From positions 156,956-220,955 of the forward strand of contig JAYKJE010000021.1 in NCBI GenBank assembly GCA_035285805.1: 64,000 nt of DNA, given 5' to 3'. Numbering within the stretch: position 1 is the stretch's first letter; each line of letters opens with the position of its first letter. The translations under genes were made by a program, and so were the position numbers. Under the pieces are notes generated by a model that was not told the DNA's origin, did not search any database, and was given only the letters and a program-made list of their open reading frames with translations. Positions 1,294 through 22,323 of the stretch are shown here, piece after piece. Source of the stretch: a bacterium (GTDB lineage Bacteria > Cyanobacteriota > Sericytochromatia > S15B-MN24 > UBA4093).

Positions 1294-1296
1294 GGA

Positions 1297-3560: not shown

Positions 3561-3561
3561 G

Positions 3562-4725: not shown

Positions 4726-4738
4726 GTCGCGTGCTCCC

Positions 4739-5686: not shown

Positions 5687-6978
5687 CTCGCGGGGGGGGA
5701 GGGGGACGAGGACGGAGACGTGGAGGAAGTGGCCACGGGTGACGGGGGGGGCATGGTCCCGGAGGTCCCCAGGACGGTGGGGGTCACGAGGATGGCGAGT
5801 TCGGTCTCCTGGTGCTGGTATCGCGTCGATCGGAACAGTTCCCCGAGAATGGGTACGTCGCCCAGGAAGGGGAGCTTCTCCACGAGCTGCGAGCTGACGT
5901 CCTGCAGCAATCCCCCGATGGCGAGGCCCTCGCCCTGGGCCAGCACGACCTGGGTCTGGGCCCGGCGGGTCGTGATGGCCGGAACGACGAAATTGGCCAG
6001 GCGTACGGCATTGGCGACGTCGAGCTGGGAGACTTCCGGGGCGACCTGGAGCGAGACGCGTCCGTCATCCAGCACCTGCGGCGCCATGTCCAGCTTGATC
6101 CCGTAGGGTTTCCATTCGAAGGTGACCTGGTTGAGCTGCTGGCTCACCGGCACCGGGACCTCGCCCCCGGCCAGAAAGCTGGCCTTGCCTCCACTGACGG
6201 CGACCAGCTTGGGTCGGGCCAGGACGCGGGCATCGCCCCGGGCCACGAGCATGCTCAGGCGGGCGGCGATCCGCTCGTAGAGCCCGAAGGCCGTGCCGCC
6301 GAGGTCGGAAAGGGGCTGACCGGCTCGCGGGTTGCGGGCATCAGCCTGGGTGAGCCCCAGGTTGTCGGGCTCGAAACGGTCTTCGCCGTTCGACGAGCGG
6401 TTCATCTGGCCCCACTTGATTCCGAGCTCGTGACTGGCCGTCTTGCCCAGCTCCACCACCTGCACGTCGACCTGGACCTGCTGGACCGAGTCGGCCTCGA
6501 GCAGGTTGACGACCCGCGGGGCGAAGCTCTGGGCCAGCTTTTCCGCCTGCTGGGCCTGGCTCGTTCGGGCCACCCGACCCGTCAGCAAGACGGTGTCCTG
6601 GACGACCTGGACGCCGAGACCCCGGGCGCCCGTCACCCGGGCGATCGTGTCCTTCAGGAGGCTGGCGTCGAGACGCACCGAGACCTCGTACCGGGTCAGG
6701 CCCCGCTCCGTCCAGACGAAGCAATGGGTGCTACCGGCCCGCTTGCCGTTGACGAGCACGGCGTGACCGTCGAGGACCGCAACGTCCGCGATCGTCGGGT
6801 CCGTGACCGAGACTTTCGTGATGCGCGGCCCCGATCGGACGACCTCGGAATGCCCGACGTCCAGAGGCAAGGACATCGAGGCGATCGCCTCGGTACCCTG
6901 TGCCCTGGCGGGCGTCCAGGGGTGGAGGGTGATCCACAGGCATGGCAGGATCCAGCCGCGCAGCGTTCTGGAATTCAA
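5683..6978 (-). CDS. cpaC: Flp pilus secretin CpaC/RcpA
   Basis: Signal peptide, BON-like N-terminal region and a C-terminal secretin domain (LARPKLVAVSGGKASFLAGGEVPVP... VTPTVLG). Confidence 0.85.
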   Translation of the reverse strand: MNSRTLRGWILPCLWITLHPWTPARAQGTEAIASMSLPLDVGHSEVVRSGPRITKVSVTDPTIADVAVLDGHAVLVNGKRAGSTHCFVWTERGLTRYEVSVRLDASLLKDTIARVTGARGLGVQVVQDTVLLTGRVARTSQAQQAEKLAQSFAPRVVNLLEADSVQQVQVDVQVVELGKTASHELGIKWGQMNRSSNGEDRFEPDNLGLTQADARNPRAGQPLSDLGGTAFGLYERIAARLSMLVARGDARVLARPKLVAVSGGKASFLAGGEVPVPVSQQLNQVTFEWKPYGIKLDMAPQVLDDGRVSLQVAPEVSQLDVANAVRLANFVVPAITTRRAQTQVVLAQGEGLAIGGLLQDVSSQLVEKLPFLGDVPILGELFRSTRYQHQETELAILVTPTVLGTSGTMPPPSPVATSSTSPSSSPSPPAR

Positions 6979-7823
6979 CGGTTCACCTCTTCTGTTTGGG
7001 TGCCGCGGATGACGAGGATCCCCCGGGGTGCGGAAGGACGCTCGACGACCCGGACGGTCACGGGGACCCGGACGGGTACCCGGACCACGCGCTGGGCAGG
7101 CCCGGAATCGGGGGCCCGACGCGGGACCCCGAGCAGCGTATCGGGAGTCACCCCGGACGTCCTGGCCGTGCTGCTTTCGGCGTTCGAACGCATGGCGAGC
7201 CTGATCTTGCCGCGGTCGGCGGCCAGGATGAGACGTTCGGTGTCGGCCGGGGTCACGGCTAGCGTCGCCGACGACACCACCCGGGCGCCCTCACCGGAAG
7301 CCCGGTCGGCCTCCTGGGCGCAAGCCAGGACCCGGACGCGCTGGAGGAGGAAGTGCGTCGTCGTTTCACCCTCGACGTCCATCGTGCTCACCACGTCGAC
7401 CACCATGCCGGGTTGAACGAATCCCGCCACCCCGACGACCTCGTCGACGGCGACGGTCACGGCACGCATCCCGGGCGGAACGGGCAAGATCGCACGTTCC
7501 CTTTGACCGCGTGGCCAGAGGTGTTCCTCGAGCACGGGTTCTCCGGGAACCAGAGCGATGCGTCCCGAGCGCCCGATCAGGCCCTCGATCGAGTCCGTGG
7601 CTCCTGCCGGGGTGAAGCGTTCCGGGCGATCCTGCAGGGTCAGGTCGCGCGGGCCGATGGGTTCGTTCGGGGCCACGGTACGCAGGGCCACGACGACGGG
7701 GCGCGTGGCCTCCGGTGCGGCCTCGGAGGCCTGGACGCGGCTGAACCACCAGGTCATGCCGGCGCTCGAGGCGAGTCCGAGCCCGGCGGCGATGACGATC
7801 CGGGGAATGCGAACGGGGTTCAT
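6975..7823 (-). CDS. cpaB: Flp pilus assembly protein CpaB/RcpC
   Basis: N-terminal membrane anchor and CpaB-like composition. Overlaps the secretin gene by 4 nt, directly downstream of the tadE-like gene. Confidence 0.75.
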   Translation of the reverse strand: MNPVRIPRIVIAAGLGLASSAGMTWWFSRVQASEAAPEATRPVVVALRTVAPNEPIGPRDLTLQDRPERFTPAGATDSIEGLIGRSGRIALVPGEPVLEEHLWPRGQRERAILPVPPGMRAVTVAVDEVVGVAGFVQPGMVVDVVSTMDVEGETTTHFLLQRVRVLACAQEADRASGEGARVVSSATLAVTPADTERLILAADRGKIRLAMRSNAESSTARTSGVTPDTLLGVPRRAPDSGPAQRVVRVPVRVPVTVRVVERPSAPRGILVIRGTQTEEVNR

Positions 7824-8209
7824 GGAGCCTCCTGGCGCATCGTGGCCGTGGCGGCGAGCCAGAGCGGGACGGGAAGCCCGGGGATGCGCACGGTCACCTC
7901 GAGCGGGTGATCGAGCCGGACCTGCACGTCGGACCCGTCCGACGAGCGGGGGTGGCCGATCGATACCCGGGTCCCGGTGGTCTCGATCCCCGCACCGGAC
8001 AGGTACGCGAGCGTCGTCTCGCGCACCCGGCCGTCGGGGCGACCGAGGGCGCCCAGCCGGGCACCCTCGCGGGCAGCATTCGTGAGCACGAGCTGGGTCC
8101 CGAAAATCTGTCCCAGGGCGAAGATCCCCGTCACCAGGGCCAGGACCAGGGGCAGGGCCAGAGCCGTCTCGACGGTGGCCTGGCCAGAGACATCAGCAAG
8201 TCGCATCAC
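7820..8209 (-). CDS. tadE: TadE-like pilus assembly protein
   Basis: TadE motif ...ATVETALALPLVLALVTGIFALG...AREGARLGA. Start is GTG at 8209 or ATG at 8206. Confidence 0.7.
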   Translation of the reverse strand: MMRLADVSGQATVETALALPLVLALVTGIFALGQIFGTQLVLTNAAREGARLGALGRPDGRVRETTLAYLSGAGIETTGTRVSIGHPRSSDGSDVQVRLDHPLEVTVRIPGLPVPLWLAATATMRQEAP

Positions 8210-8218
8210 GTGTTTCCG

Positions 8219-8392
8219 TTACTTGCTGGTGCTGCTCAGCGTGTTGGCGATTGCTGATAGCATCTTGTTGACATTTGTGCCCATCATGGTCAGCGCACCG
8301 ACCGTCACGACGGCGATGAGGCCCAGGATGAGTCCGTACTCGGTCAGCGCCTGGCCGTCCTCGTCCCGGATGAAGTTCGCGAGCATGGTCAT
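8219..8392 (-). CDS. flp: Flp family type IVb pilin
   Basis: 58-aa product MTMLANFIRDEDGQALTEYGLILGLIAVVTVGALTMMG... with the Flp signature G/XXXXEY followed by a hydrophobic helix. GGAGGAG ribosome-binding site 6-7 nt upstream of the ATG at 8392. The ORF track's longer N-terminal extension is unlikely. Confidence 0.8.
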   Translation of the reverse strand: MTMLANFIRDEDGQALTEYGLILGLIAVVTVGALTMMGTNVNKMLSAIANTLSSTSK

Positions 8393-8474
8393 GGGGGATC
8401 TCCTCCTCGGTGGGGGGTGGGGGGCGAACGAGACCATCATCGTCGGCACGCGTGACGTCGCTTTCACGCTCGCG

Positions 8475-9380
8475 TTACGGCAGCTTTCGGATGTCCGTCA
8501 GGCGAGTCCAGGCGACCTCGACCTCGAGGGCGAGTCTCTCGAGTTCGCGGACGCCCCGGAGCCGGGTGCTCGCCCGCTCGAAGAGCCGAAGCCTCGCCCC
8601 GTGCTGGAGTCCGGCGTGCATGAGGGCTTTCAGCGTTGGCTCGCCGAGGCTCGCCCGGACCCCCGCGGGAAGGGTTTCCAGGATGGCTCCTGCTTCTCCC
8701 TCGATCCCCGTCAGTCGCGAGAGCACGCGATCGAGCAATTCGACCGGTGCCGAGGCACGGGCCCTCACCCGCAGGACGTGGTCATAGAAGGCAATCTCGG
8801 GGGCCAGTCGCTTCACGTGCATCGACAGGTCGGGCGTCCGGAGCACGAATCGCGGCTCGCGTCTCCCGCGGACGACATCCTCGATGTGGAAGCATCCGAG
8901 GTCCATCGCCGCCACGAAGTGCCACTTCAGTCCGAATCTGCGGTGCTGGACCAGGAAGGCATGGACATCCGCATCGGAGAGCCAGAGGAGTTGCTCGATG
9001 CGCCTCCGGACGGTGCGCAGGTCGCTCGAGTAAAGCACCGGGTGCGTGTGAAAGGCGCCCAGTTCCGCATGGACGAGGTCGTGGGGGCGGCAGCGATAGC
9101 GGACTCCGATCGTTCCGGTTCCCGGCGCCCGGACGGTCGCGGTCGTGAGGTTCTGGTACTCGAGGATCCGGTCTTCACAACCTCCCATCATCCCGGCCCG
9201 CTCGTCGAAGACCGGCAGCCGACGATGAAGGGATGAGGCGGAGGCAGTCAGGGTGTTGAGCATGCTCAGCCCGAACTCGTCGATGAGCCGGGCATGCATC
9301 GAGGCCGAAACGCGCAAGGGTTCTCCAGGGTGCACGGACGGAGGGGATCCGTTCCAAGGGGTATCCATCCTGGAGATCAC
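8475..9380 (-). CDS. hypothetical cytoplasmic protein (301 aa), first gene upstream of flp and divergent from dam
   Basis: Long ORF with GTG start (or ATG at 9368). No recognisable motifs. Coding-like codon bias. The promoter region is the GATC-rich AT-rich intergenic segment. Confidence 0.5.
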   Translation of the reverse strand: MISRMDTPWNGSPPSVHPGEPLRVSASMHARLIDEFGLSMLNTLTASASSLHRRLPVFDERAGMMGGCEDRILEYQNLTTATVRAPGTGTIGVRYRCRPHDLVHAELGAFHTHPVLYSSDLRTVRRRIEQLLWLSDADVHAFLVQHRRFGLKWHFVAAMDLGCFHIEDVVRGRREPRFVLRTPDLSMHVKRLAPEIAFYDHVLRVRARASAPVELLDRVLSRLTGIEGEAGAILETLPAGVRASLGEPTLKALMHAGLQHGARLRLFERASTRLRGVRELERLALEVEVAWTRLTDIRKLP

Positions 9381-9516
9381 GTGTTATTGTAAACATCGAG
9401 TTACGGAGACATCGATCACAGAGCACATTTGATCTATTGATCACATATTTCTGTCGATCAGCGTGATCAAATGTCTCCAGATGATCGTTGGCACTTACCC
9501 GGAGGACCCCCCGCGC
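9375..9516. promoter_or_regulatory. AT-rich divergent intergenic/promoter region with a dense cluster of seven GATC (Dam) sites
   Basis: GATC at about 9375, 9414, 9431, 9439, 9456, 9465 and 9483, including repeated TGATCA half-palindromes. About 85 bp of under 40% GC inside a roughly 70% GC genome. Lies between the 301-aa gene (start 9380, minus) and dam (start 9517, plus). Confidence 0.6.
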
Positions 9517-10347
9517 ATGGCCCGTACACGTTCCCTGTCTCTCCCCACCAAGGCGCAGCCCTTCCTGAAATGGGCGGGGGGGAAGACTCGCCTGCTGGCC
9601 CAGTTCGAGCCGATGTTTCCGCGGCGGTTCCGGCGCTACCACGAACCCTTCATCGGGGCGGGAGCCGTGTTCTTCCACCTGCAGGCACGCGAGGCCTTCA
9701 TCTCGGACACCAATCCGGACCTCATCACGTGTTACCAGGTCCTCCAGGCGGACCCGGCCAGCCTGATCGAGGTGCTCCGGTTGTACCGTCATGATCGCGA
9801 TTTCTACTATCACGTTCGCGATCTCGATCCCCGCGAGCTGAGTCCCGTCCAGCGGGCCGCGCGGATGATCTTTCTCAACAAGACCTGCTTCAACGGCCTC
9901 TGGCGCGTCAACCGGCAGGGGCGCTTCAACGTGCCATTCGGAGATTACAAGAATCCCCGGATCGTCGATGCCGACAACCTGGCTCTCGTTCACGCAGCCT
10001 TGCAGGACGTCCACATCCGGCAGGCCGGGTTCGAGCAGGCCCTGGCCGACGTCGAACGCGGGGATTTCGTGTACCTCGACCCGCCCTATCATCCGGTCAG
10101 CACGACGGCCCGATTCACGAGTTACGGGGCCGATGACTTCCGGGAAGCCGACCAGCGTCGACTCGCGGAGGAGTTTCGTCGCCTGGATGCGCGCGGTGCC
10201 CGGGTCATGCTGTCGAACTCCGACACGCCCCTGGTGCACGAGCTCTATGCCGGTTATCGGCTCGACCTCGTCACCTGCAACCGGGCGATCAACCGGGATG
10301 CCTCCAAGCGTGGCGCCATCCACGAGGTGGTCGTCCGGAACTACTGA
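9517..10347 (+). CDS. dam: DNA adenine methyltransferase (Dam family, GATC-specific N6-adenine MTase)
   Basis: FLKWAGGK AdoMet-binding motif and catalytic DPPY (YLDPPYHP), Dam-like length. GGAGGA ribosome-binding site 10 nt upstream of the ATG at 9517. The ORF track's start at 9463 (GTG) lies inside the AT-rich region. Confidence 0.85.
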   Translation: MARTRSLSLPTKAQPFLKWAGGKTRLLAQFEPMFPRRFRRYHEPFIGAGAVFFHLQAREAFISDTNPDLITCYQVLQADPASLIEVLRLYRHDRDFYYHVRDLDPRELSPVQRAARMIFLNKTCFNGLWRVNRQGRFNVPFGDYKNPRIVDADNLALVHAALQDVHIRQAGFEQALADVERGDFVYLDPPYHPVSTTARFTSYGADDFREADQRRLAEEFRRLDARGARVMLSNSDTPLVHELYAGYRLDLVTCNRAINRDASKRGAIHEVVVRNY

Positions 10348-10543
10348 GGTCGATCCGGAGCCGCTTCCGGGTATCTCTCTTCCGGGGGGAGGGCGATATC
10401 GATGCGTGGTGTTCCCGTGACCTGGAGGGGCCTCTGGCGATCGGCCGTGCTCGCGCTCTGGGCGTTGAGCCTCGTCGCCTGTCGGACGGATGTGCGAAAT
10501 TTCTGGGACCTGCCCTAGGCTTCGCGAGGTGGCCCCGGGCGTC

Positions 10544-11431
10544 TCACTTCGCGAGCATCTCGCCTGGCAGGTGATGGGTCCACACGAGCCCCGCGATGAG
10601 CAGGCCGAGGGCGATGCGGTAGCCGATGAAGCCCCACATCGACCGCTGCTGCAGGAACTGCATCAGGAACCGGATGCAGAGGTATCCCACGACGCCCGAG
10701 GTCACGATTCCCACGGCGAACGCCGGCAACTGCGGGCTCGCGAGGATGTGGTTCAAGATGCCGGCGGGTTGGGTTCCCTGCAGCCGGCTAGCGACGCCCT
10801 CGACGGTATCCTTGGCCTTGAACAGGCAACTGGCCAGGATGATGGGGAAGCCTAGCAGGAACGAGAACCGGGCGGCGGACTCGCGGCTGAACCCCATGAA
10901 CATCGCAGCCGTCATGGTCGCACCGGAACGCGAGGTGCCCGGTATCAGCGCGCAGGCCTGGGCGATCCCGATGGCGATCGCCTGGGGCAGGCGCAGGTGG
11001 GTGAGTTCCCGGACTCTCGACCCCACGACCTCGGCGAGCCCGAGCAGGAAGGCGACCCCGATGAGCATCGTGGAGATGACGAGGGGAGAACGGAAGGTGG
11101 TCTCGACGGCCTCTTCGAGCATGAGGCCGGCGGCGGCGGCAGGCACGCACCCCAGCACGACCATCCAGGCCAGGCGTGCCTCGTCGTTCCAGGCAGCCCG
11201 TCCCTTCGTCACGCTCAGCAGTCCTGCCCGTCCCATTCCGATGAAGTCGCGCCAGAAGTAAACCGCGACGGCGGTGAACGTGCCGAGATGCAGGGCCACG
11301 TCGAACGTCAGACCAGGGTCTTTCCAGCCCAGGAGTGCCGGGACGAGGATGAGATGTGCCGTGCTGGAAATGGGGAGGAATTCACTCACTCCCTGGACGG
11401 CGCCGAGCACGGCTGCCTGGAAGAGATCCAC
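10544..11431 (-). CDS. uppP: undecaprenyl-diphosphate phosphatase
   Basis: BacA/UppP family signature (VSEFLPISSTAHLIL...; multi-pass membrane protein). Confidence 0.9.
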   Translation of the reverse strand: MDLFQAAVLGAVQGVSEFLPISSTAHLILVPALLGWKDPGLTFDVALHLGTFTAVAVYFWRDFIGMGRAGLLSVTKGRAAWNDEARLAWMVVLGCVPAAAAGLMLEEAVETTFRSPLVISTMLIGVAFLLGLAEVVGSRVRELTHLRLPQAIAIGIAQACALIPGTSRSGATMTAAMFMGFSRESAARFSFLLGFPIILASCLFKAKDTVEGVASRLQGTQPAGILNHILASPQLPAFAVGIVTSGVVGYLCIRFLMQFLQQRSMWGFIGYRIALGLLIAGLVWTHHLPGEMLAK

Positions 11432-11522
11432 CGGATGGCCTTTCGGAAGGGGGGCGACGGACGCTCATGCTAGCACGGCGGACCTCCGCGGAGGCCCGCC
11501 GCATCGGCATGGCGAGTTCTTG

Positions 11523-12092
11523 TCAGTAGGAAATGCTCGATCCGAGGCCGATCGCCGCCTGGGACAGCAGGGCGAGTTCCTGCATGCTCGGCGGGGTGTA
11601 GGAGCGCCCCTCGTTGGCAGCGATCTCGAAAGCCTTGGCCGTCAGGGCCGCGAACAGCACGCCGCGCTGGATGTCCTGACCGAAGCCGGACCCCGAGTAG
11701 CGTGAGAGGTCACCGGGGCTCCGGATGCCCGACCGGACCATCAGGTGCGCGGCATCCGGGGACATGTTCCGGATTCGCATCATGTCGGCCATCTGACCGT
11801 ATACGATGAGCCGGTCGGCAGGGATGCCGGTGAGGAAGGACGTGATCGATCGTCGGAACCCTCCGCCCGTCGCAAAGCGCAACATGAACGGGTTTCCGGC
11901 GCCGACCATCCGCAACCGGTGAAGGTCCTGGTCGTTCCCGAGCAACCGGCTCATCAGGTACAGGTTAGCACTGCCCTGGCTTTCCATCACGGGCTGCCGG
12001 GCCAGGACGGGGGCGGCGCCACCTGCCTGGACGGCGCTGGTGGCCAGCGCGGGGCGTGCATAGGTGAGGGACGGGATGCCCTGGACTTGCAT
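11523..12092 (-). CDS. hypothetical protein (189 aa)
   Basis: ORF only. No recognisable motif. Moderate coding-like bias. Confidence 0.35.
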   Translation of the reverse strand: MQVQGIPSLTYARPALATSAVQAGGAAPVLARQPVMESQGSANLYLMSRLLGNDQDLHRLRMVGAGNPFMLRFATGGGFRRSITSFLTGIPADRLIVYGQMADMMRIRNMSPDAAHLMVRSGIRSPGDLSRYSGSGFGQDIQRGVLFAALTAKAFEIAANEGRSYTPPSMQELALLSQAAIGLGSSISY

Positions 12093-12243
12093 GGGGGTCC
12101 TCCTGCCACTGGACGGTCTGACGAGGGGCTTATCGGACCGGAGATGTTCCAGCTTTCTTAAGTCGGGTTCAAGCCCAGATGAACTCCCGGGTCATGCCAG
12201 GGTTTGACAACCTGCCCTGTCGCACGATAGGCTCCAGATGTCG

Positions 12244-12320
12244 CGGGGCGTAGCGCAGCTTGGTAGCGCATCTGCTTTGGGAGCAGAGGGTCGTGGGTTC
12301 GAATCCCACCGCTCCGACCA
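12244..12320 (+). tRNA. tRNA-Pro (anticodon TGG)
   Basis: Cloverleaf folded by hand. Acceptor CGGGGCG/CGCTCCG, D-arm GCGCAGCTTGGTAGCGC, anticodon stem-loop TCTGC-TTTGGGA-GCAGA, T-arm GTGGGTTCGAATCCCAC, 3' ACCA encoded. Confidence 0.85.
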
Positions 12321-12325
12321 GTCGC

Positions 12326-12397
12326 GCGGGTGTAACTCAGCGGTAGAGTTCCTGCCTTCCAAGCAGGATGTCGTGGGTTCGAATCCCATCGCCCGCT
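12326..12397 (+). tRNA. tRNA-Gly (anticodon TCC)
   Basis: Acceptor GCGGGTG/CGCCCGC, D-stem ACTC/GAGT, anticodon stem-loop CCTGC-CTTCCAA-GCAGG, T-arm GTGGGTTCGAATCCCAT. CCA not encoded. Confidence 0.85.
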
Positions 12398-12414
12398 CTC
12401 ACAGGTCGCTCACG

Positions 12415-12450
12415 CCGAGCCCTCCTCCTGGAGGGCTCGGTTGTTGTTCG
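12415..12450 (+). terminator. hairpin (GAGCCCTCC-tcc-t-GGAGGGCTC) plus TTGTTGTT after the tRNA pair
   Basis: Perfect 9-bp GC-rich stem followed by a T-rich stretch immediately downstream of tRNA-Gly. Confidence 0.45.
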
Positions 12451-12569
12451 AGGACCTCGGGTTCCTGCACGGCTTTGAGAAAATACCATTAAGTTTCCGT
12501 TTGCCCCCGTAAGCTTGCGTTTCGGCGGGGAAAAAACAGGCATGTCGGGACCGGTCAACGGAGAGTGTC

Positions 12570-13367
12570 ATGAGCAGTGCCATCCACGTCATTCCTGATC
12601 CTGCCCAGCTTCTGGCCGAGGCACGTGCTGCGATCGTCAAGAGCCGGTACTTCCAGCACGGCAGGACGGACCGCTACGGCCATGTCGTGGGGTTGCGCGA
12701 GTATCCCGCCGGACGCGTGCCCACGGATCATCAGGTTCATCACTACGACCAGGCCGGGCGAGTCATCCTGTTCGAGAAATACACGAGAGATTTCTCGAAG
12801 CCCACGTATCGACTGTATCGCTATGCTGGAAACGTCATGAACGAGGCCATCTGGATCGACCGCTATGGCCACATCGAACATCATCACTGCTTCCAGTACG
12901 ACCGGGTCACCGGTCAGATGGTCTGGCGGGCCGAGTACCAGCCCGACGGGACGCTGTTCTACAGCGTCGCATCCACCTACGACTCGGTCGGAAACCTCAT
13001 CGAGGATGCCTATTTCGACCGGAATGACGTGTTCGTGAAGCGGGAGGCTTACGAGCACGACAAGGCGGGAGATGTCACCCGCGAACGTTTCTATGACCAC
13101 GAGAATGCCCTGGTGGGGTTCAACACGTTCACCTACGACAAGCAGAGGCGGCTGACCGCTCGCATCTGGCATGGACCGGATGGCGTGCGACGTTCCCGTT
13201 TCGCCTACACCTACGATCGCCAGGACAGGCTGTCTCGTCTCACCGTGTATGGTCCCACCGACAAGAATCCTCTGGTCCAGGAGTTCACGTATGACGACGT
13301 GGGTAGCGTCACCCGGGAACGCTGGATGGAGGCCTCGGGACAGGTCGTCAAGGAACTCGTCTTCTGA
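12570..13367 (+). CDS. YD-repeat (Rhs/teneurin-type repeat) protein, 265 aa, no signal peptide
   Basis: At least six YD-type repeats (HYDQAGRV, YDSVGNL, YEHDKAGDV, YDKQRRL, YTYDRQDRLSRL, YDDVGSV). No Rhs core or toxin domain. The AT-richer region 12476-12545 upstream is a likely promoter. Confidence 0.7.
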   Translation: MSSAIHVIPDPAQLLAEARAAIVKSRYFQHGRTDRYGHVVGLREYPAGRVPTDHQVHHYDQAGRVILFEKYTRDFSKPTYRLYRYAGNVMNEAIWIDRYGHIEHHHCFQYDRVTGQMVWRAEYQPDGTLFYSVASTYDSVGNLIEDAYFDRNDVFVKREAYEHDKAGDVTRERFYDHENALVGFNTFTYDKQRRLTARIWHGPDGVRRSRFAYTYDRQDRLSRLTVYGPTDKNPLVQEFTYDDVGSVTRERWMEASGQVVKELVF

Positions 13368-13402
13368 GGCCTGCCGGTCTCACATTTCCCCCTGGAGGAG
13401 CC

Positions 13403-14479
13403 ATGAGCGATATCTCGGGTATCGATCCCATCAAACAGACCGTCAAGATCAATGCGGCGGCGATCGCCGCCGCCGCGGCGTCCGCGCAAGCCGTGCCCGG
13501 GGCCACCGAGGCCCCTGCCCGCGATCAGGTCAGCATCCAGACATCCGATGCGTCCGACCTGGGCCTGGGGGAAGCCGCAGGTCCCGGGGGGCAGCGCGGG
13601 CGCATCCTGCCCGAGGCCGCTCCTGCCGATCTCATGTCGGCCATCGGTAGCGCTCCCGTCGCGAGCGCGATGCCGGGGATGAGCGCTCCAGGCAAGTCGA
13701 TCGAGGTGCCACGACCCAAGCCGGCCCCCCCCATCCAGTCCACGCCTCGGTCGGACGTGCCCTCGAGCGTGTCCTACAGCTCTCCTTCCTCGGTCAAGCC
13801 CGAACCGCGCTATCTCGACGTCCAGGGCTGCACCGGCATGGGGGCCGCCTCGGGGAAGTCTTACAAGGTGCTCGAGAGTGATGCGATCGCCATGTACTCG
13901 CTGCTCAAGGAGAAGCCCCTCTGGAAGATGGATGAACTGAAGTACGCCCTCCAGGCCTACTTCGGGATCGAGGCCGAGGTGACCAAGGTGGATGGCCGCA
14001 ACGCCATCGTCGGGACCGACGGACGCATCATCGCTGTCGACACGGAGGGCAACGGGGCGATCGACATCAACGATCTCCAGTTCGGTCAGGCCCTCTCTGC
14101 GGCAGGCGTCGACATCTCGCAGATCAAGAGTGCCAGCGAGATGATGAAGGACCGTCTGAACGCGATGAATCTCGCGCTCAAGGTGTCGGAAGATCTCCAG
14201 AAGATGAACCAGGAGATCGCGGAACGCGAGATGACGATGGCCTCCATCCGAGCCAGCGCGGAAGCCGCCGATGCGAAGGCACGCGGTGCGGCTGCCGCGG
14301 TCGCAGCTTCCGGCCTGACCTCGGTGACCCCGTCCTCGAATCCGGGTTCTTCGTCGTCCTCGTCCTCGTCTTCGCCGTCGCCAGGGGCCTCGTCCGCCGG
14401 CGCGGCGGCCGCTGCGGCGGGGGCGTCGGCCGCCGCAGCACCGTCGGCACCTTCCGGCGGTGGTAAGGGAATGGCCTGA
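13403..14479 (+). CDS. hypothetical protein (358 aa) with Ala/Ser/Pro-rich N- and C-terminal low-complexity regions
   Basis: ORF 35 nt after the YD-repeat gene. Its stop overlaps the next start (ATGA). The C-terminus is SSSSSSSSPSPGASSAGAAAAAAGASAAA. Confidence 0.55.
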   Translation: MSDISGIDPIKQTVKINAAAIAAAAASAQAVPGATEAPARDQVSIQTSDASDLGLGEAAGPGGQRGRILPEAAPADLMSAIGSAPVASAMPGMSAPGKSIEVPRPKPAPPIQSTPRSDVPSSVSYSSPSSVKPEPRYLDVQGCTGMGAASGKSYKVLESDAIAMYSLLKEKPLWKMDELKYALQAYFGIEAEVTKVDGRNAIVGTDGRIIAVDTEGNGAIDINDLQFGQALSAAGVDISQIKSASEMMKDRLNAMNLALKVSEDLQKMNQEIAEREMTMASIRASAEAADAKARGAAAAVAASGLTSVTPSSNPGSSSSSSSSSPSPGASSAGAAAAAAGASAAAAPSAPSGGGKGMA

Positions 14480-14757
14480 TGGATACTCCGCTGCTCACCC
14501 GTGCCGAGGTCGTCGAGCGCATCGAGCGCTTCAATGCCTGCCTGGCTCGCGAACACGAACTCAAGAAGAAGCTGGTCACCATGAAGATCCGCGGCGATTT
14601 CCAGCGCGTGCGCGAGATGATGTCCGAGCACGACGCCCTCATCGCCGAGATCAGTCGCATCCAGCTCGAGGAGATGGTGCCCATCATCGTGGAGCTGGAC
14701 CGTTTCACCAAGGCAGGCCTCGCCGTCCTGGAAGCCTACAACCGTGACAAGTCGTAA
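14479..14757 (+). CDS. hypothetical small helical protein (92 aa)
   Basis: Start overlaps the upstream stop (ATGA). The downstream rSAM gene begins 14 nt before its stop, so it is translationally coupled on both sides. Confidence 0.5.
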   Translation: MDTPLLTRAEVVERIERFNACLAREHELKKKLVTMKIRGDFQRVREMMSEHDALIAEISRIQLEEMVPIIVELDRFTKAGLAVLEAYNRDKS

Positions 14758-16588
14758 AGCCCTGCTGGTCTTTCCCCCGCAGTGGACCCCCCAGAATCCG
14801 CACTTCGCCCTGCGCGCTCTGGCGGGTCACCTGCGGGCCAACGGTATCGAGGTCGCCGTGCGCGACCTCAATGTCGAGTACTACGATTCCATCCTGACGC
14901 CGGAAAGCCTCTCGCTGGCCCGGGATCGGATCCGTCTGGACCTGGAGTACCTCGGATATCAGACCATCATCCGGCAGATGATCGACGAGCAGAGCCACCA
15001 GGCGGACGTCGACGCAGCTCGGTTCATGGCCATGAAGCGATTCGAGGACAACCATCCCGGTGCCCTCGATCGCCTGCCGGGCCTGATCCTCGACGCGAAG
15101 GAGACTCTCCGCGATCCACGCCGCTATTACAACCCGGATTACCTGATCGACGCGTTCCGGACCATCGATCTGGCGTTGCAGGCCCTGTCGTTGCCGTACC
15201 ATCCGGCCAACCTCTCGTACATCTACTTCGACCAGCCGGATGCCCGGTTCACGATCCGCACGGCGCACGAGTTCGCCAGCTCACCCACGGCGAACATGTT
15301 TCATGCGTTCTTCGAGGCGCAGATCGATTCGCTCCTGGCCGAGGAGGCATCCTACATCGGCATCTCGATCAACTCGTTCTCCCAGGTGCTGCCGGGCCTC
15401 ACGCTGGCGCACATGCTGCGGAAAGCCGCGCCGCCCGGTGTCCATATCGGACTGGGGGGCAATCACCTGGGGCGCGTCAAGGAGACGTTGCTCGAGAGAC
15501 CCGATTTCTTCGAGTTTTTCGCCCACAGTCTCGCGACCAGCGAGGGCGAGCAGCAACTGGTCCACATGGTCCAGGCCCTCGTGGACGGACGGAGCCTCGA
15601 GGATGTCCCCAACATCTTGTATGTCGGCGAGGACGGCGTGCCCCGGGCCTCGAAGGCGGCGAAGCCGCCGCAGATGGACCGGATCGGTCACCAGGACCTG
15701 GCCGGTCTGCCCATGGACCTCTACTTCTCCCCCGAGCCCTTGCTGACCATCCAGGCCAGCAAGGGGTGCTACTGGGGTAAATGCTCGTTCTGCGATTCGT
15801 TCTTCGGAGTCGATCTCGACTTCAAGTCGATCGACAAGCTCGTCGCCGAGATCCGTCATCTCAAGGAGACCTACGGCGTCCGGTTGTTCCAGTTCATCGA
15901 CGAGGCGCTCCCACCGAACTACATGGAGGCGATGGCCCGACGCTTCATCGAGGAGAAGCTGGACATCCAGTGGTTCAGCAACGGACGCCTCGAGACGGGC
16001 TTCACCCCGGAGCTCATGAGCCTCCTGCATGAGGCCGGTCTGCGCATGGTCCTGTGGGGATACGAGACGGGGGCGCCGCGCATCCACAACCTCATCAAGA
16101 AGGGGGTGGCGTTCAGCCGGCGCCATGACATCCTTCGCGGGGCGGCAGAGGCGGGCATCTTCAATTTCGCGTACATCTTTTTCGGCTTTCCCTCCGAGAC
16201 CCTCGAGGAGGCAAACGCCACGATCGATGCCATGTGCGAGAACACGGACATCATTCACGCGTACGGACGCTCGGTCTTCACCCTCGGCAAGCAGAGCCCG
16301 CTCTACGCCGATCTGGAGAAGAACGGAGACATTCTCGAGGCCGTCGTGGACATCGAGGATCTGTCGTCCAACATCTCGTTCAAGACCCGTGGTGGCATGT
16401 CCGACGAGGAACTGCATGCGGTCATGAAATCGTGCACCACCCGGTGCGCCGAGGCCTATGACCACGCGCTGTGGTTCTACCTCCGGAGCCGGGAGAACAT
16501 CCACTACTACCTGGCCCGGTTCGGGGCCGAGCACGTGCGGAAGGCCACGTTCAAGCGATTCCATGCCCAGCCCGTCGAGCAGGCCTGA
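14744..16588 (+). CDS. B12-binding domain radical SAM protein (class B rSAM-like) with variant CX4CX2C cluster motif
   Basis: N-terminal B12-binding-like region (KALLVFPPQW...). Fe-S motif KGCYWGKCSFCDSF. Elongated TIM-barrel-like rSAM core. 614 aa. Confidence 0.8.
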   Translation: MTSRKALLVFPPQWTPQNPHFALRALAGHLRANGIEVAVRDLNVEYYDSILTPESLSLARDRIRLDLEYLGYQTIIRQMIDEQSHQADVDAARFMAMKRFEDNHPGALDRLPGLILDAKETLRDPRRYYNPDYLIDAFRTIDLALQALSLPYHPANLSYIYFDQPDARFTIRTAHEFASSPTANMFHAFFEAQIDSLLAEEASYIGISINSFSQVLPGLTLAHMLRKAAPPGVHIGLGGNHLGRVKETLLERPDFFEFFAHSLATSEGEQQLVHMVQALVDGRSLEDVPNILYVGEDGVPRASKAAKPPQMDRIGHQDLAGLPMDLYFSPEPLLTIQASKGCYWGKCSFCDSFFGVDLDFKSIDKLVAEIRHLKETYGVRLFQFIDEALPPNYMEAMARRFIEEKLDIQWFSNGRLETGFTPELMSLLHEAGLRMVLWGYETGAPRIHNLIKKGVAFSRRHDILRGAAEAGIFNFAYIFFGFPSETLEEANATIDAMCENTDIIHAYGRSVFTLGKQSPLYADLEKNGDILEAVVDIEDLSSNISFKTRGGMSDEELHAVMKSCTTRCAEAYDHALWFYLRSRENIHYYLARFGAEHVRKATFKRFHAQPVEQA

Positions 16589-16589
16589 C

Positions 16590-18173
16590 GTGGCGCCGGG
16601 GCGATCGGTCTCGTTCTCCCTCCGGGTGGCATGTGCCATCCTCCTGGTCACGGGATGCACGACTGCGGTCCTTCCAGGCACGGGGTCGCCATCCCGCGGG
16701 CAGACACCATCATCGGTGGGCGAGGACGCACGTTCCGTGTCCGTCTCGGGGCAGGTTCTCGGGGAGGATGGAGTCCCCGTGGCCGGGGTGCGCATCCGGA
16801 TCTATCCGGCACCGGAGGATCCGCTCAAGACGGTGGCCCCGCTTCGCACGGTCGCTCCCCTGAAAAGCGTGGCTCCCTACCGCGCCCTCGCTGCCACCGA
16901 CGCCCGTGAGACCGTGACCGATGAGTCCGGGCAATACCGGATGGCGGGGCTTGCCGGGGGGCCCTGGGCCGTGCTGGCCGAGCAAGGTGATCGCCTCAAG
17001 GCCTTTGCCCGGATCGAGGTGGGTGATGGCGCCCCTCCGGGCGTCTCCTTGCGCCTTCAGCCGACCGGTGGCATCCGCGGGGTGGTCACGGCACCCGACC
17101 AGCCCCTCGTGAACGATTTCACGCGGGTGGAAGTGTTCGTCCCCGGTTTACCGTACGTGGTCCGACCTTCCGAGAACGGGACCTTCCTGATCACCGGATT
17201 GCCCGTCGGAGATCACGTGCTGCGCGCTTACCGCGAGGGCCTCGGTGAGGCCGGACGGGGCGAGGTCAGGGTCGAACCCGGCGGGGTCACGGACGTCGGG
17301 GCGATGGTGCTCACCCGGAGGGTGCCGCGTCTGACTCGCCTCGATCCCCCGTACGTGCCAGAAGGCGGCGTCTTGCGGCTGGTCGGCGAGAACCTGGGCA
17401 TCCAGACGGGAGATCCCTTCCAGGTGTACATCGACGGGAAGGTCGTCCGTGGCGCCAGGGCCATCGATGCGGCCACGATCGAGGTGCCAGTCACGTCGGG
17501 CGTGGCTTCCGGCAAGGTCTTCGTCACGGTGGGCTCCCTCGAGAGCAACGAACTGCCGTTCCAGAAGATCGTCGACCTCGCGATCGGCGTTCCGGACGGT
17601 GCTCTCGCCCTGTCGCTCGGGCAAACGCGACGGATTCCCACCGCCATCGGGATTCCGGACGATGGCTACGAACCGGTACACCTGGCCGTCGGTCCGGTCT
17701 GGACCCTCTCGGGAACCGCGGCTACCATGGACGCGGATCGGGTGCTGCGGGCGGTCCGGGAGGGGGACGGCGAACTCTCCCTCACGTGGGGGGAGCTCCG
17801 GGCCACCCGGAACATTCGCGTGTATCCGTCGGATTCGTGGACACCCTCTGCGCTCGTCGGGCAGCATCTCGTCTTGGGGGATGACGATGGACCCGCGGAT
17901 CGAGCGTTCCTGCGCGGCCCGTCGCAACTCGTCTTCGATGCTCGCGGGCGTCTCATCCTCGCAGATGAAAACCCTTCGGAAGACGGCGAGACCTTCGACC
18001 CCGGTCCGGAGGCGAGCCGGCTTCGCATCCTGGACGATGGGGTCCTGCGCCCCTGGAGCGTGCACCTCCCGGGCGGAGAGCCCTTCTCGTTCGTTCAACC
18101 TCGCGGCATGGCCTCGCGCCGGACGGTGGCGTGCTGGTCGCAGACGCCGGTTTGCAGCAAGTCTACCGCGTGA
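16590..18173 (+). CDS. lipoprotein with two CarboxypepD_reg-like domains, an IPT/TIG domain and NHL repeats (5' portion; reading frame appears disrupted near 18110)
   Basis: GTG start 2 nt after the rSAM stop. Signal peptide with lipobox LLVTGC. Motifs VSGQVLGEDGVPVAGVRIRIY, TDESGQYRMAGL (CarboxypepD_reg), GGVLRLVGENLG (TIG), and PSQLVFDARGRLILAD (NHL). The track's ATG at 16458 lies inside the rSAM gene. Confidence 0.7.
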   Translation: MAPGRSVSFSLRVACAILLVTGCTTAVLPGTGSPSRGQTPSSVGEDARSVSVSGQVLGEDGVPVAGVRIRIYPAPEDPLKTVAPLRTVAPLKSVAPYRALAATDARETVTDESGQYRMAGLAGGPWAVLAEQGDRLKAFARIEVGDGAPPGVSLRLQPTGGIRGVVTAPDQPLVNDFTRVEVFVPGLPYVVRPSENGTFLITGLPVGDHVLRAYREGLGEAGRGEVRVEPGGVTDVGAMVLTRRVPRLTRLDPPYVPEGGVLRLVGENLGIQTGDPFQVYIDGKVVRGARAIDAATIEVPVTSGVASGKVFVTVGSLESNELPFQKIVDLAIGVPDGALALSLGQTRRIPTAIGIPDDGYEPVHLAVGPVWTLSGTAATMDADRVLRAVREGDGELSLTWGELRATRNIRVYPSDSWTPSALVGQHLVLGDDDGPADRAFLRGPSQLVFDARGRLILADENPSEDGETFDPGPEASRLRILDDGVLRPWSVHLPGGEPFSFVQPRGMASRRTVACWSQTPVCSKSTA

Positions 18174-18850
18174 GTGCCGACGGCGAGGTGACCCTCGTGG
18201 CCGGATCGGGCGATGAAGGCTTCACGGACGGGCCGGCACTCGCGGCGCGTTTCTCGAATCCCTGGGCGATCGCCGTGGCGTCCGATGGCCGGATCGCCGT
18301 GAGCGATCTCGGCAACCATCGCATCCGGCTCATCGTGAACGGGGCCGTCTCGACTCTTGCCGGGACGGGTCAGGATGCGCTCGTCGATGGGCCTGTCGGA
18401 ACGGGGTGCCTGCATCAGCCGTACGGGCTGGCATGGGCTCCTGATGGCGTCCTCTGGAGCTCGGATGTGGGGGGGAACTGCCTGCGAACCATCGATCCAG
18501 CGGGCGACATCCGGACCGTCAGCCGCAAGGTGGGGCTACTCGACGGGCCCCTGCTCGATGCCCTGTTTGCGTCTCCCACGGCTGAAGGTCCGCTCGGCGA
18601 GGTCGATTTTCGCTGGCCATACGGCATCCGTTTCGACCGGGAGGGCACACTCTGGGTCTGCGACTGGCAGAGTACCCTGATCCGGCGCGTGAAGGACGGC
18701 CTCGTGTCGACCGTCAAGAGACGGGACAGGGAGTTCGTCGAAGGCTTGCCCTTTCAGGGAATCACGGGGAACTACGCGATCGACTTCGATCCGGACGGTC
18801 ACGCGGTCGTCAACAACGTCTGGTGGCACACGATCATCCGTCTGCAGTGA
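18131..18850 (+). CDS. NHL-repeat protein, probably the 3' continuation of the 16590 lipoprotein gene after a frameshift
   Basis: NHL repeats (APDGGVLVADAGLQQVYRV, PWAIAVASDGRIAVSDLGNHRIRLI, PYGLAWAPDGVLWSSDVGGNCLR, PYGIRFDREGTLWVCDWQSTLIRRV). The frame is open upstream to 17969 and, joined with the upstream frame, reconstitutes a perfect NHL repeat. Confidence 0.65.
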   Translation: MLVADAGLQQVYRVSADGEVTLVAGSGDEGFTDGPALAARFSNPWAIAVASDGRIAVSDLGNHRIRLIVNGAVSTLAGTGQDALVDGPVGTGCLHQPYGLAWAPDGVLWSSDVGGNCLRTIDPAGDIRTVSRKVGLLDGPLLDALFASPTAEGPLGEVDFRWPYGIRFDREGTLWVCDWQSTLIRRVKDGLVSTVKRRDREFVEGLPFQGITGNYAIDFDPDGHAVVNNVWWHTIIRLQ

Positions 18851-18856
18851 CAGGTC

Positions 18857-19861
18857 TCAGGTTGCCGAGCGCACGACCAGGTAGCTCTTGACGAGGCGTC
18901 CGTCCGTGCGAGTCTCGGCCTTGCCTGGGACGAGCATGTGGCTCGAACCCCCACCGTCGAGTGCGTAGGCTTCCACGGCGCCGAGGCGCTTCAGCAGGAG
19001 CGCGCCCTCGGCCATGTTGCCGCCGGCCCCGCGATTGCTGCCCTCGCCCAGCGTCACGGCCAGGAGTCGTCCCTGGGCATCGAGCCCCACGAAGGTCCGG
19101 GCGATCGAACTGGCCAGGTCGACGTTCGGGAAGCTCCGGTCGGCCACGCCCCGGTCGAGCCGAGCCCGGAATGCGCCGGTTTCGACGTCGCGTTCGAGCC
19201 GCACGGCCTCTTCGGGACCGAACAGGCGCCCCAGGCCACCGATGAAGCCCTTCACGTCCTGGCGAGCCAGACCCGACTCGACCAGCCCACCCTTCACGAA
19301 CCGGAGGCTGCCATCCTCGAGGGAGGCCAGAGACCAGCGGCGATCGCTGATCTGGTCGTAGCCGCGATTGGGATTGTCCTCGTCGAGAACCGCTTTCCCC
19401 AGGCCCACCAGATCGCCGTAGGTGGCTTCGCCCTGACCCATGCCGAAGAAGGTCGCGTTGACGGCAGCGAGCATGCCCGGAATCTGCCGGATCGCCGAGG
19501 GGGGGACGCCCGTCTTGCCGTCGTAGAAGCCGGCTTCTACCTTCACCTGCCGGGGATCGATCAGCAGCACCCGTGCCAGGGAGCCGTCCGCGGTGCGACG
19601 GGTATCATCCAGCCAGAGGCCCGGGACGACCTCGACCCGCTTGCGGGTGAAGCCCATGAAGCCCCCCATCCAGTCCATGAACCGGAGCACGGGAGAGGGC
19701 CATTCGAAGCGAAGCAACCGTTCGCGCGTGCTCTGGCTCGTTCCGAAGCGAGCGATGTCGCGGGCGGGGGCGCTGGCTGCCCGGAAAGACCCTCCGGACG
19801 CTCGTGGGGCTACTCCTGACGGATGGGCTGTCCGGGGCGGGGCATCGAGACGGGACACCAT
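18857..19861 (-). CDS. phosphodiester glycosidase family protein (NAGPA/DUF2233-like)
   Basis: Family-typical LDGGGSS motif and FFGMGQGEATYGDLVG region. Start uncertain (the N-terminus of the ORF is Arg/Ala-rich, so an internal Met start is likely). Confidence 0.65.
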   Translation of the reverse strand: MVSRLDAPPRTAHPSGVAPRASGGSFRAASAPARDIARFGTSQSTRERLLRFEWPSPVLRFMDWMGGFMGFTRKRVEVVPGLWLDDTRRTADGSLARVLLIDPRQVKVEAGFYDGKTGVPPSAIRQIPGMLAAVNATFFGMGQGEATYGDLVGLGKAVLDEDNPNRGYDQISDRRWSLASLEDGSLRFVKGGLVESGLARQDVKGFIGGLGRLFGPEEAVRLERDVETGAFRARLDRGVADRSFPNVDLASSIARTFVGLDAQGRLLAVTLGEGSNRGAGGNMAEGALLLKRLGAVEAYALDGGGSSHMLVPGKAETRTDGRLVKSYLVVRSAT

Positions 19862-20817: not shown

Positions 20818-20893
20818 GCGCTCGTAGCTCAGGGGATAGAGCAGCCGCCTTCTAAGCGGCTGGTCGCTGGTTCGAATCCAGCCGGGCGCGCCA
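20818..20893 (+). tRNA. tRNA-Arg (anticodon TCT)
   Basis: Acceptor GCGCTCG/CGGGCGC, anticodon stem-loop GCCGC-CTTCTAA-GCGGC, T-arm GCTGGTTCGAATCCAGC, CCA encoded. Confidence 0.85.
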
Positions 20894-20907
20894 GACTCTC
20901 GATTCAT

Positions 20908-20981
20908 GGTGGGTGTAGCCAAGTGGTTAAGGCACTGGGTTGTGGTTCCAGCATACGTGGGTTCGATTCCCATCATCCACC
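20908..20981 (+). tRNA. tRNA-His (anticodon GTG) with encoded G-1
   Basis: G-1 plus acceptor GTGGGTG/CATCCAC, anticodon stem-loop CTGGG-TTGTGGT-TCCAG, T-arm GTGGGTTCGATTCCCAT, discriminator C. Confidence 0.85.
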
Positions 20982-21050
20982 CCTCGAGAAGCCCTGACTC
21001 CAGTCAGGGCTTCTTCCCTTGTCTTGCGCGTACATGGAAAGGATCCCCGC

Positions 21051-22241: not shown

Positions 22242-22314
22242 GCGCCTGTAGCTCAGTGGATAGAGCGCTTGCCTCCGGAGCAAGAAGTCGCAAGTTCGAG
22301 TCTTGCCAGGCGCG
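22242..22314 (+). tRNA. tRNA-Arg (anticodon CCG)
   Basis: Acceptor GCGCCTG/CAGGCGC (perfect), D-stem GCTC/GAGC, anticodon stem-loop CTTGC-CTCCGGA-GCAAG, T-arm GCAAGTTCGAGTCTTGC. Confidence 0.85.
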
Positions 22315-22323
22315 CTGTGCGAG

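Follow-up and report, generated by a model that had tools for sequence, protein, structure and literature searches.

We describe a gene cassette built around a radical S-adenosylmethionine (SAM) enzyme in a metagenome-assembled genome of Candidatus Sericytochromatia (Cyanobacteriota; assembly GCA_035285805.1, contig JAYKJE010000021.1), contained in a 64,000-nt stretch of DNA, hereafter the window, to which coordinates refer unless a locus is named. In the order found here, the cassette consists of g1, a short YD-repeat protein; g2, a protein with disordered arms around a small folded core; g3, a small helical protein; and g4, the radical SAM enzyme. Judged by sequence conservation, the unit under selection is g2/g3/g4, joined by g1 in one branch of the family, and g4 is, on its predicted fold, a class-B (cobalamin-domain) enzyme of an unnamed family that forms the catalytic core of the cassette. 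We interpret the four genes as a protein maturase system in which g4 would act on a co-encoded partner, with g2, or a unit of g2 and g3, as the favoured target, and we assign this reading a probability of about 45%. A search of the full-text literature returned no description of the cassette.

The case for a functional unit rests on conservation of gene content across distant lineages. Scanning one genome per GTDB species with an alignment of the enzyme yielded at least 334 relatives, the best 80 loci of which were taken for neighbourhood analysis, detecting partners with tblastn, iterated hidden Markov models (HMMs) over six-frame open reading frames (ORFs) and ORF clustering. Of these, 68 have enough flanking sequence (1.5 kb or more upstream and 1 kb or more downstream). 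A g2-like gene is present in 62 of the 68; it carries the g2-type core in 51 and belongs in the remainder to a second, divergent type, c5, with an MDTDGDGTIE loop. A small helical gene is likewise present in 62 of the 68, either as g3 directly upstream of the enzyme or as c1, an unrelated-looking protein of ~120 aa encoded 9 nt downstream of the enzyme in Melainabacteria. The g1 gene is found in 23, usually directly downstream of the enzyme, and four well-flanked loci have none of these partners. The loci range over Sericytochromatia, Melainabacteria, Eremiobacterota/Vulcanimicrobiota, Armatimonadota, Myxococcota, UBP9, Chloroflexota and metagenome-assembled genomes (MAGs) of Bacillota. Their usual order is g2-g3-rSAM-g1, with g1 placed in front in the window and in three other loci (L004-L006). 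The association also holds in the reciprocal direction: of the distant g2 homologues (E down to 9.5e-4), the three whose contigs continue downstream all have a gene of 80-82 aa next and then a radical SAM gene of 612-633 aa, and in one of them g1 follows too; the contig of a fourth ends at its g2 gene.

Several features of these loci tie the partners to each other and to the enzyme. In at least six proteins from two phyla (L009-L011, L019, P0133 and P0137), g2 and g3 are fused in one ORF, with g3 at the C-terminus of g2. Compared with the L004 locus, g2 is ~32% identical, g3 40%, g1 44% and the enzyme 59%, making g2 the fastest-evolving component. Duplicated g2 genes stand beside a single enzyme in L037, L032 and L053, and in a Melainabacteria MAG (L031) five tandem radical SAM paralogues (1235-11812) occur with one g2-like gene (8811-9629, minus strand) and one small helical gene (11827-12171). 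More than one cassette is present in many genomes; those of gut Gastranaerophilales and other Melainabacteria have 2-5 copies. Average-linkage clustering by sequence identity groups the enzymes by partner type (c5, c3, g3 with g1, or g3 only). Beyond the cassette, no gene is common across lineages around the ~80 loci, which have no conserved transporter, protease, small-molecule pathway or lipid gene; the recurrent neighbours reflect synteny within orders. A second radical SAM gene near some loci was considered as a further member and set aside as lineage synteny, given its heterogeneity (a mycofactocin-like SPASM enzyme in L019, MoaA/activase-like proteins in Gastranaerophilales). The initial annotation of this DNA, made from the sequence alone, had proposed a five-gene unit including a downstream lipoprotein gene, g5; co-conservation across phyla bears this out for g2, g3 and g4, with g1 in a subset, and excludes g5, which accompanies the enzyme in close relatives only.

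The class-B-like radical SAM assignment of g4 is upheld by both sequence and predicted structure. The protein scores 59.5 bits against Pfam Radical_SAM PF04055 (cut-off 29.5), placing it in the superfamily, and the three cysteines of its cluster-binding motif (C342, C347 and C350) are invariant across the 36 sequences of the enzyme alignment, with a spacing equal to that of OxsB in a HMMER alignment. An AlphaFold2 (AF2) model built from 36 homologues (predicted local distance difference test, pLDDT, 90.8; predicted template modelling score, pTM, 0.90) shows a Rossmann-type domain broken by a four-helix insertion (residues 42-152), a radical SAM barrel and a C-terminal domain, thus combining the N-terminal Rossmann-like cobalamin-binding domain and the barrel that together define class B. 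The enzyme probably uses cobalamin. Circumstantial indications come from L030, where a cobalamin riboswitch (5748-5870, 84 bits) and a TonB-dependent receptor gene (6014-7876) lie ~1 kb 5' of a g2-g3-rSAM cassette, and from L009 and L010, where a BtuB-like receptor gene without riboswitch lies 3' of the cassette. Among radical SAM homologues we found no enzyme-partner fusion, the longer ones (647-680 aa) carrying low-complexity loop insertions only.

Orthology of g4 to a characterised enzyme had been named at the outset as a finding that would speak against a new system, and it did not emerge. The best curated sequence models are TIGR03975, for RiPP (ribosomally made peptide with post-translational modifications) maturation radical SAM C-methyltransferases (102.8 bits, cut-off 281.85), and PhpK (102 bits, cut-off 600), both far under threshold, followed by ApyD (75 against 750), HpnJ (73.6 against 577.6), the glutamine methylase of methyl-coenzyme M reductase (MCR), TIGR04014 (49 against 360), BchE (46.1 against 481), the ladderane-lipid B12-rSAM model (43.6 against 360) and HpnR (36.1 against 650). 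Because all NCBIfam matches fall so far below their cut-offs, g4 is, on these sequence scores, not orthologous to any characterised enzyme; its best solved relatives are also remote. Identity with a membrane-spanning-lipid synthase was considered and rejected on the same scores together with the structure matches.

From its N-terminus, the putative target, g2, runs through a disordered arm rich in Ala, Ser and Pro, a core of ~100 aa and a coiled segment to a tail rich in Ser, Ala and Gly, in agreement with the Ser/Ala/Pro-rich tails reported initially. Its family is rare, amounting to 28 representative clusters when 1.84 billion representative proteins were scanned exhaustively with HMMER. For g2, neither Pfam nor NCBIfam has a family scoring above cut-off, and when Pfam, NCBIfam, PADLOC and PHROGs were searched with g2, g3, c1, c3 and c5, the one family returned was LysM, in two g2 homologues. 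The core is confidently predicted in the AF2 model of a homologous g2-g3 fusion, P0137 (pLDDT ~95), and matches no structure in the PDB. Its most conserved element is a candidate calcium-binding loop of EF-hand/dockerin type, DTEGNGAIDIND, which by inspection fits the 12-residue EF-hand pattern (acidic or amide ligands in positions 1, 3, 5 and 12, with Gly in position 6 and a hydrophobic residue in position 8) and follows the family consensus D-x-[NE]-G-[ND]-G-x-[LI]-x-x-x-[DE]-x-x-F. The best PDB matches of the g2 profile are EF-hand proteins, weakly (6kth, E 0.005, and calerythrin), and Pfam gives weak EF-hand matches in two of 21 members (E ~0.02-0.03). Members contain one to three tandem cores (three in P0130, two in P0131), and two end in a peptidoglycan-binding LysM domain (P0152, encoded at L088 3663-4871, and a protein encoded at L028 6015-7586); LysM and the loop together suggest an extracytoplasmic fate for g2 proteins. 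The N-termini recur as M-x-[IV]-[ND]-like motifs, and members from outside the cyanobacteria have Met/Gln/Asn/Gly-rich arms and a conserved C-terminal W.D..W.N....F..A..YA motif. To judge from its evolution, g2 resembles a substrate or a structural partner more than it does a catalytic subunit, because it evolves fastest, repeats its core one to three times, is duplicated beside one enzyme, stands alone beside the enzyme array of L031 and matches the enzyme clades in type.

The remaining partners are simpler. The all-helical character predicted for g3 is borne out by the fusion model, in which it forms a helical hairpin (pLDDT ~95); it belongs to no Pfam or PDB family, retains a single invariant residue, P68, across its own family, and lies directly 5' of the radical SAM gene in 39 loci. 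The description of g1 as a signal-less YD-repeat protein without toxin domain likewise stands. It scores 17.1 against TIGR01643 (YD repeat; cut-off 15.8) and 20.7 against Pfam RHS_repeat, slightly under the cut-off of 22, and a search with its profile retrieves Rhs 7q97 (E 5e-8) and the YD shells of teneurins (E 5e-5). It has no signal peptide, and Pfam, NCBIfam and PADLOC scans show repeats only, with no toxin or other domain. Counted over 81 loci, g1 adjoins the radical SAM gene in 28, usually just downstream. A full Rhs toxin has a shell of more than 700 aa, a Rhs core/self-cleavage motif, a C-terminal toxin and a secretion-linked N-terminus; g1 shares the YD repeats with Rhs and teneurin shells, yet with 265 aa and about ten repeats it is too short for a closed shell, and it lacks an N-terminal secretion/plug domain, the Rhs core motif, an aspartyl protease and a C-terminal toxin. 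None of g1-g5 matches the anti-phage defence models of PADLOC, and their single PHROG match is a generic radical SAM family (28 bits).

A word-index protein search with the g2 core returned nothing, although the collection contains that protein, and one with g1 gave three matches. A distant one, P0158, lies in a mobile element without a radical SAM gene and was set aside as a different family. L089 (3463-4332) encodes a distant stand-alone YD-repeat protein of 289 aa, 24% identical to g1, in an integrase/RadC mobile-element context without a radical SAM gene, indicating that short YD proteins exist beyond the cassette too.

We propose that g4, acting in the cytoplasm, would use SAM, a [4Fe-4S] cluster and probably cobalamin to place a radical-chemistry modification, most probably C-methylation, on g2. 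In this scheme g3 would have a docking or adaptor function, being joined to g2 in some genomes and coupled in translation to the enzyme in this one, and g1 would be an accessory that holds the substrate's disordered arms. We favour the maturase reading because the partner is dedicated, co-diversifying, fast-evolving and domain-repeating, because small-molecule pathway genes do not accompany the enzyme, and because C-methylases acting on peptides and proteins are among the enzyme's nearest relatives in curated models and structures; in a structure search with the g4 model, MgmA, the glutamine C-methylase of McrA, is the second-best match. The initial suggestion of an enzyme-partner, possibly post-translational-modification, system is thus a fair reading, because of the tight co-conservation of the enzyme with g2 and g3 (and g1 in a subset) across several phyla; methylation and the choice of substrate are conjectural. 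Taken to its full extent, the cassette may represent a new protein-modification system that sets C-methyl or other radical-derived marks on a calcium-loop, disorder-rich protein with the help of a g3 adaptor and a miniature holder made of YD repeats. Such a system would reach across at least seven phyla, with multiple copies in gut Melainabacteria; we put this fuller picture forward only tentatively. Because some members bear LysM and the terminal motifs are conserved, a structural or extracytoplasmic role may be envisaged for the modified protein.

A number of observations weigh against the maturase reading. Modification of any partner is something we infer indirectly, and no target residue can be nominated in g2: the invariant columns of its family are the D/G/G/D of the loop only, which might serve structure alone. 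The g2 proteins have no signal peptide, even though two carry LysM and all a calcium-type loop. Profile and fold searches for a RiPP recognition element (RRE) found none, the Pfam B12-binding match in g4 is below threshold (19.1 against 32.1), and g1 is lacking in two thirds of the loci. Between g3 and c1, the small helical protein found in Melainabacteria, hhalign detects no homology (probability 0.5%). Finally, the remaining top structural matches of g4 (TsrM, AprD4, CysS, TokK and OxsB) act on small molecules.

This last point is an argument for a different activity, in which g4 would produce or tailor a small molecule, a lipid or a cofactor and g2, g3 and g1 would be scaffold, regulatory (for instance calcium-sensing) or carrier proteins. 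The weak NCBIfam matches to PhpK, HpnJ, the ladderane-lipid enzyme, HpnR and BchE point the same way, as does a well-folded g2 core with no evident conserved target residue. These family matches, however, lie 3- to 20-fold under their cut-offs, no other biosynthetic, transport or lipid gene is kept around the ~80 loci, and the partners co-diversify with the enzyme and multiply within genomes, as substrate-enzyme pairs do. We consider a small-molecule role unlikely, although it deserves to be kept in view.

Protein modification could also be directed at g3 (or g1), with g2 as a recognition or chaperone component in a PqqA/PqqD/PqqE-like arrangement. The g3 protein is small, encoded directly 5' of the enzyme and translationally coupled to it, and class-B enzymes C-methylate proline in bottromycin, a precedent for its one invariant residue; the g2 core gives faint winged-helix and PqqD-type matches, and g3 occupies the C-terminus of g2 in the fusions. 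Against this, g3 is confidently predicted to fold as a helical hairpin rather than a leader/core peptide, the PqqD-type match has an E-value of 0.08 with no supporting RRE or other fold match, and recognisable g3 is missing from the Melainabacterial loci, as g1 is from most loci. We give a g3 or g1 substrate only a small chance, and retain g2 as the favoured target of the maturase.

Comparison with known systems delimits what is new. By analogy, the logic of the cassette resembles that of MCR-type protein methylases and of RiPP class-B methyltransferases, with scores that fall short of membership in either. Relative to the MCR-modifying class-B methylases (MgmA, PDB 9ccb, and the arginine methylase Mmp10, PDB 7qbs), g4 is ~160-200 residues longer, has the four-helix insertion and a distinct C-terminal domain, and is encoded with partners unrelated to McrA. 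Its likeness to the proteusin-type TIGR03975 family (rSAM_ocin_1) lies in overall length (the model has 606 positions) and in the N-terminal B12-type domain. The cassette does not qualify as a RiPP gene cluster: it has no short leader/core precursor, NHLP/Nif11 leader, RRE, conserved protease or exporter, the partner being instead a protein of 250-580 aa with a folded domain, and its intergenic gaps of at most 35 nt leave no room for a hidden peptide gene. TsrM, OxsB, TokK, CysS, AprD4 and PhpK share 14-19% sequence identity with g4, and their biosynthetic neighbours are not present here. The PqqA/PqqD/PqqE triad offers an analogy of layout only: an enzyme is combined with a small helper and a proteinaceous partner encoded beside it, in close linkage and at times as fusions. 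PqqE belongs to the SPASM enzymes whereas g4 is class B, and homology to PqqD is not established.

Class-B radical SAM enzymes carry out some of the hardest C-H functionalisations known. To our knowledge, few of their families have an assigned substrate, and we know of essentially only one protein, as opposed to short-peptide, substrate, MCR. A fixed set of co-encoded partners across at least 334 relatives among GTDB species genomes therefore supplies a ready-made substrate hypothesis, in lineages where the cassette is abundant and experimental biology almost absent (Sericytochromatia, gut Melainabacteria and Eremiobacterota). Were g2 the substrate, the cassette would contribute a new modification of proteins, along with three new families (those of the g2 core, of g3 and of the short YD protein), and would give YD repeats a new role beyond toxin shells; were it not, the cassette would still mark an unassigned B12-dependent pathway worth naming in annotation resources.

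The lipoprotein gene g5 proved to be neither intact nor conserved. Annotated at first as a single ORF, it is split in the window by one missing G between 18112 and 18113, leaving ORFs at 16590-18173 and 18131-18850, with the frame change falling between PRGMA and LAPDG. The window and a 100%-identical Logan contig (L001) read ATGGC-CTCGCG at this site, where sister-strain contigs L082 and L083 (98% identical) read ATGGCGCTCGCG and have an intact gene of 753 aa; g5 is also in one frame in a 92% relative, L003. The deletion is either a strain-level pseudogene mutation or an assembly error. Of the domains named initially, Pfam recovers CarboxypepD_reg, in two copies, and NHL repeats from the intact allele and no IPT/TIG domain, even at E <= 1, and the lipoprotein signal is confirmed by an LVTGC lipobox, of the form [LVI][ASTVI][GAS]C, at the end of the signal peptide (VAPGRSVSFSLRVACAILLVTGC; GLVAC in the L003 orthologue). 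The gene follows the enzyme in L001-L003, L082 and L083 and in none of the ~78 other loci, confining it to loci with at least 92% enzyme identity. On this distribution g5 is a recent, lineage-specific neighbour outside the conserved cassette, one that the strain can apparently do without.

It had been proposed that all five genes form a surface-display or export system in which the TIG/NHL lipoprotein anchors or exports the modified product. In the window and in L003, L082 and L083, g5 starts 1 nt past the radical SAM stop, which would fit such coupling, as would LysM in some g2 homologues. The restriction of g5 to the closest relatives, its frameshift in a strain where g1-g4 are intact, the lack of a detectable TIG domain and the absence of conserved export genes all argue the other way, and we regard the proposal as very improbable, finding no support for the lipoprotein as an export or anchoring partner.

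Within the first CarboxypepD_reg domain of g5 (16821-16877) we also observed a peptide repeat, PLKTVAP-LRTVAP-LKSVAP, found in the L003 orthologue as well (PLKTVAPLKTVAPLKTVAP); at the DNA level it is under the threshold of Tandem Repeats Finder.

The features of the locus are collected in Table 1. The tRNA pair, the terminator-like hairpin and the five co-directional genes reported initially are all present, and the spacings given for g1-g2, g3/g4 and g4-g5 are exact; the g2/g3 junction, described as an ATGA overlap, is actually TGATG. Gene calls in three public assemblies of the same or sister strains give exactly these plus-strand genes and no others, and the long antisense ORFs across the region are best read as the usual artefacts of high G+C content. 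The nearest records are JBIIHZ010000024 (97% enzyme identity) and proteins MEB3186890-92.

Table 1. Features of the cassette and its immediate surroundings (window coordinates)
Feature	Position	Strand	Basis or remark
tRNA-Pro(UGG)	12244-12320	+	ARAGORN and Rfam; context, outside the cassette
tRNA-Gly(UCC)	12326-12398	+	ARAGORN and Rfam; context, outside the cassette
Intrinsic-terminator-like hairpin, 12 pairs (9 G-C), T-rich tail	12414-12441	+	3' of the tRNA genes
AT-richer leader 5' of g1	12476-12545	+	GC 47%; composition and conservation
g1, YD-repeat protein, 265 aa	12570-13367	+	First cassette gene here
g2, 358 aa	13403-14479	+	35-nt gap after g1; GGAGGA Shine-Dalgarno
g2 folded core: beta-hairpin with G-x-GMG loop, two helices, three strands, calcium-type loop, helix	13808-14113	+	Predicted, AF2 of homologue
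EF-hand/dockerin-like loop of g2 (candidate)	14039-14074	+	Most conserved element of the g2 family
g3, 92 aa	14479-14757	+	TGATG junction, 1 nt shared with g2 stop
g4, radical SAM enzyme, 614 aa, GTG start	14744-16588	+	14-nt overlap with g3
[4Fe-4S]/SAM cysteine motif of g4, CYWGKCSFC (CX4CX2C), C342/C347/C350	15767-15793	+	Enzyme alignment
g5, lipoprotein gene, from GTG 16590	16590-18850	+	1-nt spacer after g4 stop

The leader had been described as an AT-richer, promoter-like segment. Its composition is indeed distinctive, falling within the lowest 0.34% of 70-nt windows in G+C content against a mean of ~67% for the whole window, and it is kept in relatives; a search for a sigma-70-type promoter consensus gave no match, and neither a riboswitch nor any other RNA family was detected by Rfam. 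From its composition and conservation, the leader may plausibly act as a promoter. The hairpin sequence preceding the leader is kept in L002, L082 and L083. The tRNA genes, whose adjacency had been presented as a feature of the operon, flank the cassette in close relatives only, being recent local neighbours like g5, and the idea of a tRNA-linked island was ruled out for the same reason. A sub-threshold Rfam match to the Y RNA-like YrlA (12265-12380; 36 bits, gathering threshold 69) spans both tRNA genes and was dismissed as an artefact of tRNA structure.

Further from the cassette, the region 5' of the tRNA genes (~6975-8392, minus strand; 9463-10347, plus strand; 10544-11431, minus strand) encodes Tad/Flp pilus components (RcpC, TadE, Flp pilin), a D12-class DNA methyltransferase and BacA, as labelled by Pfam matches on sister contig L082. 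On the 3' side, a convergent gene of the NAGPA (phosphodiester glycosidase) family (18857-19861, minus strand) is followed by glutaredoxin and BolA genes, and then by a tRNA-Arg(UCU)/tRNA-His pair (20818-20983) and tRNA-Arg(CCG) (22242-22315).

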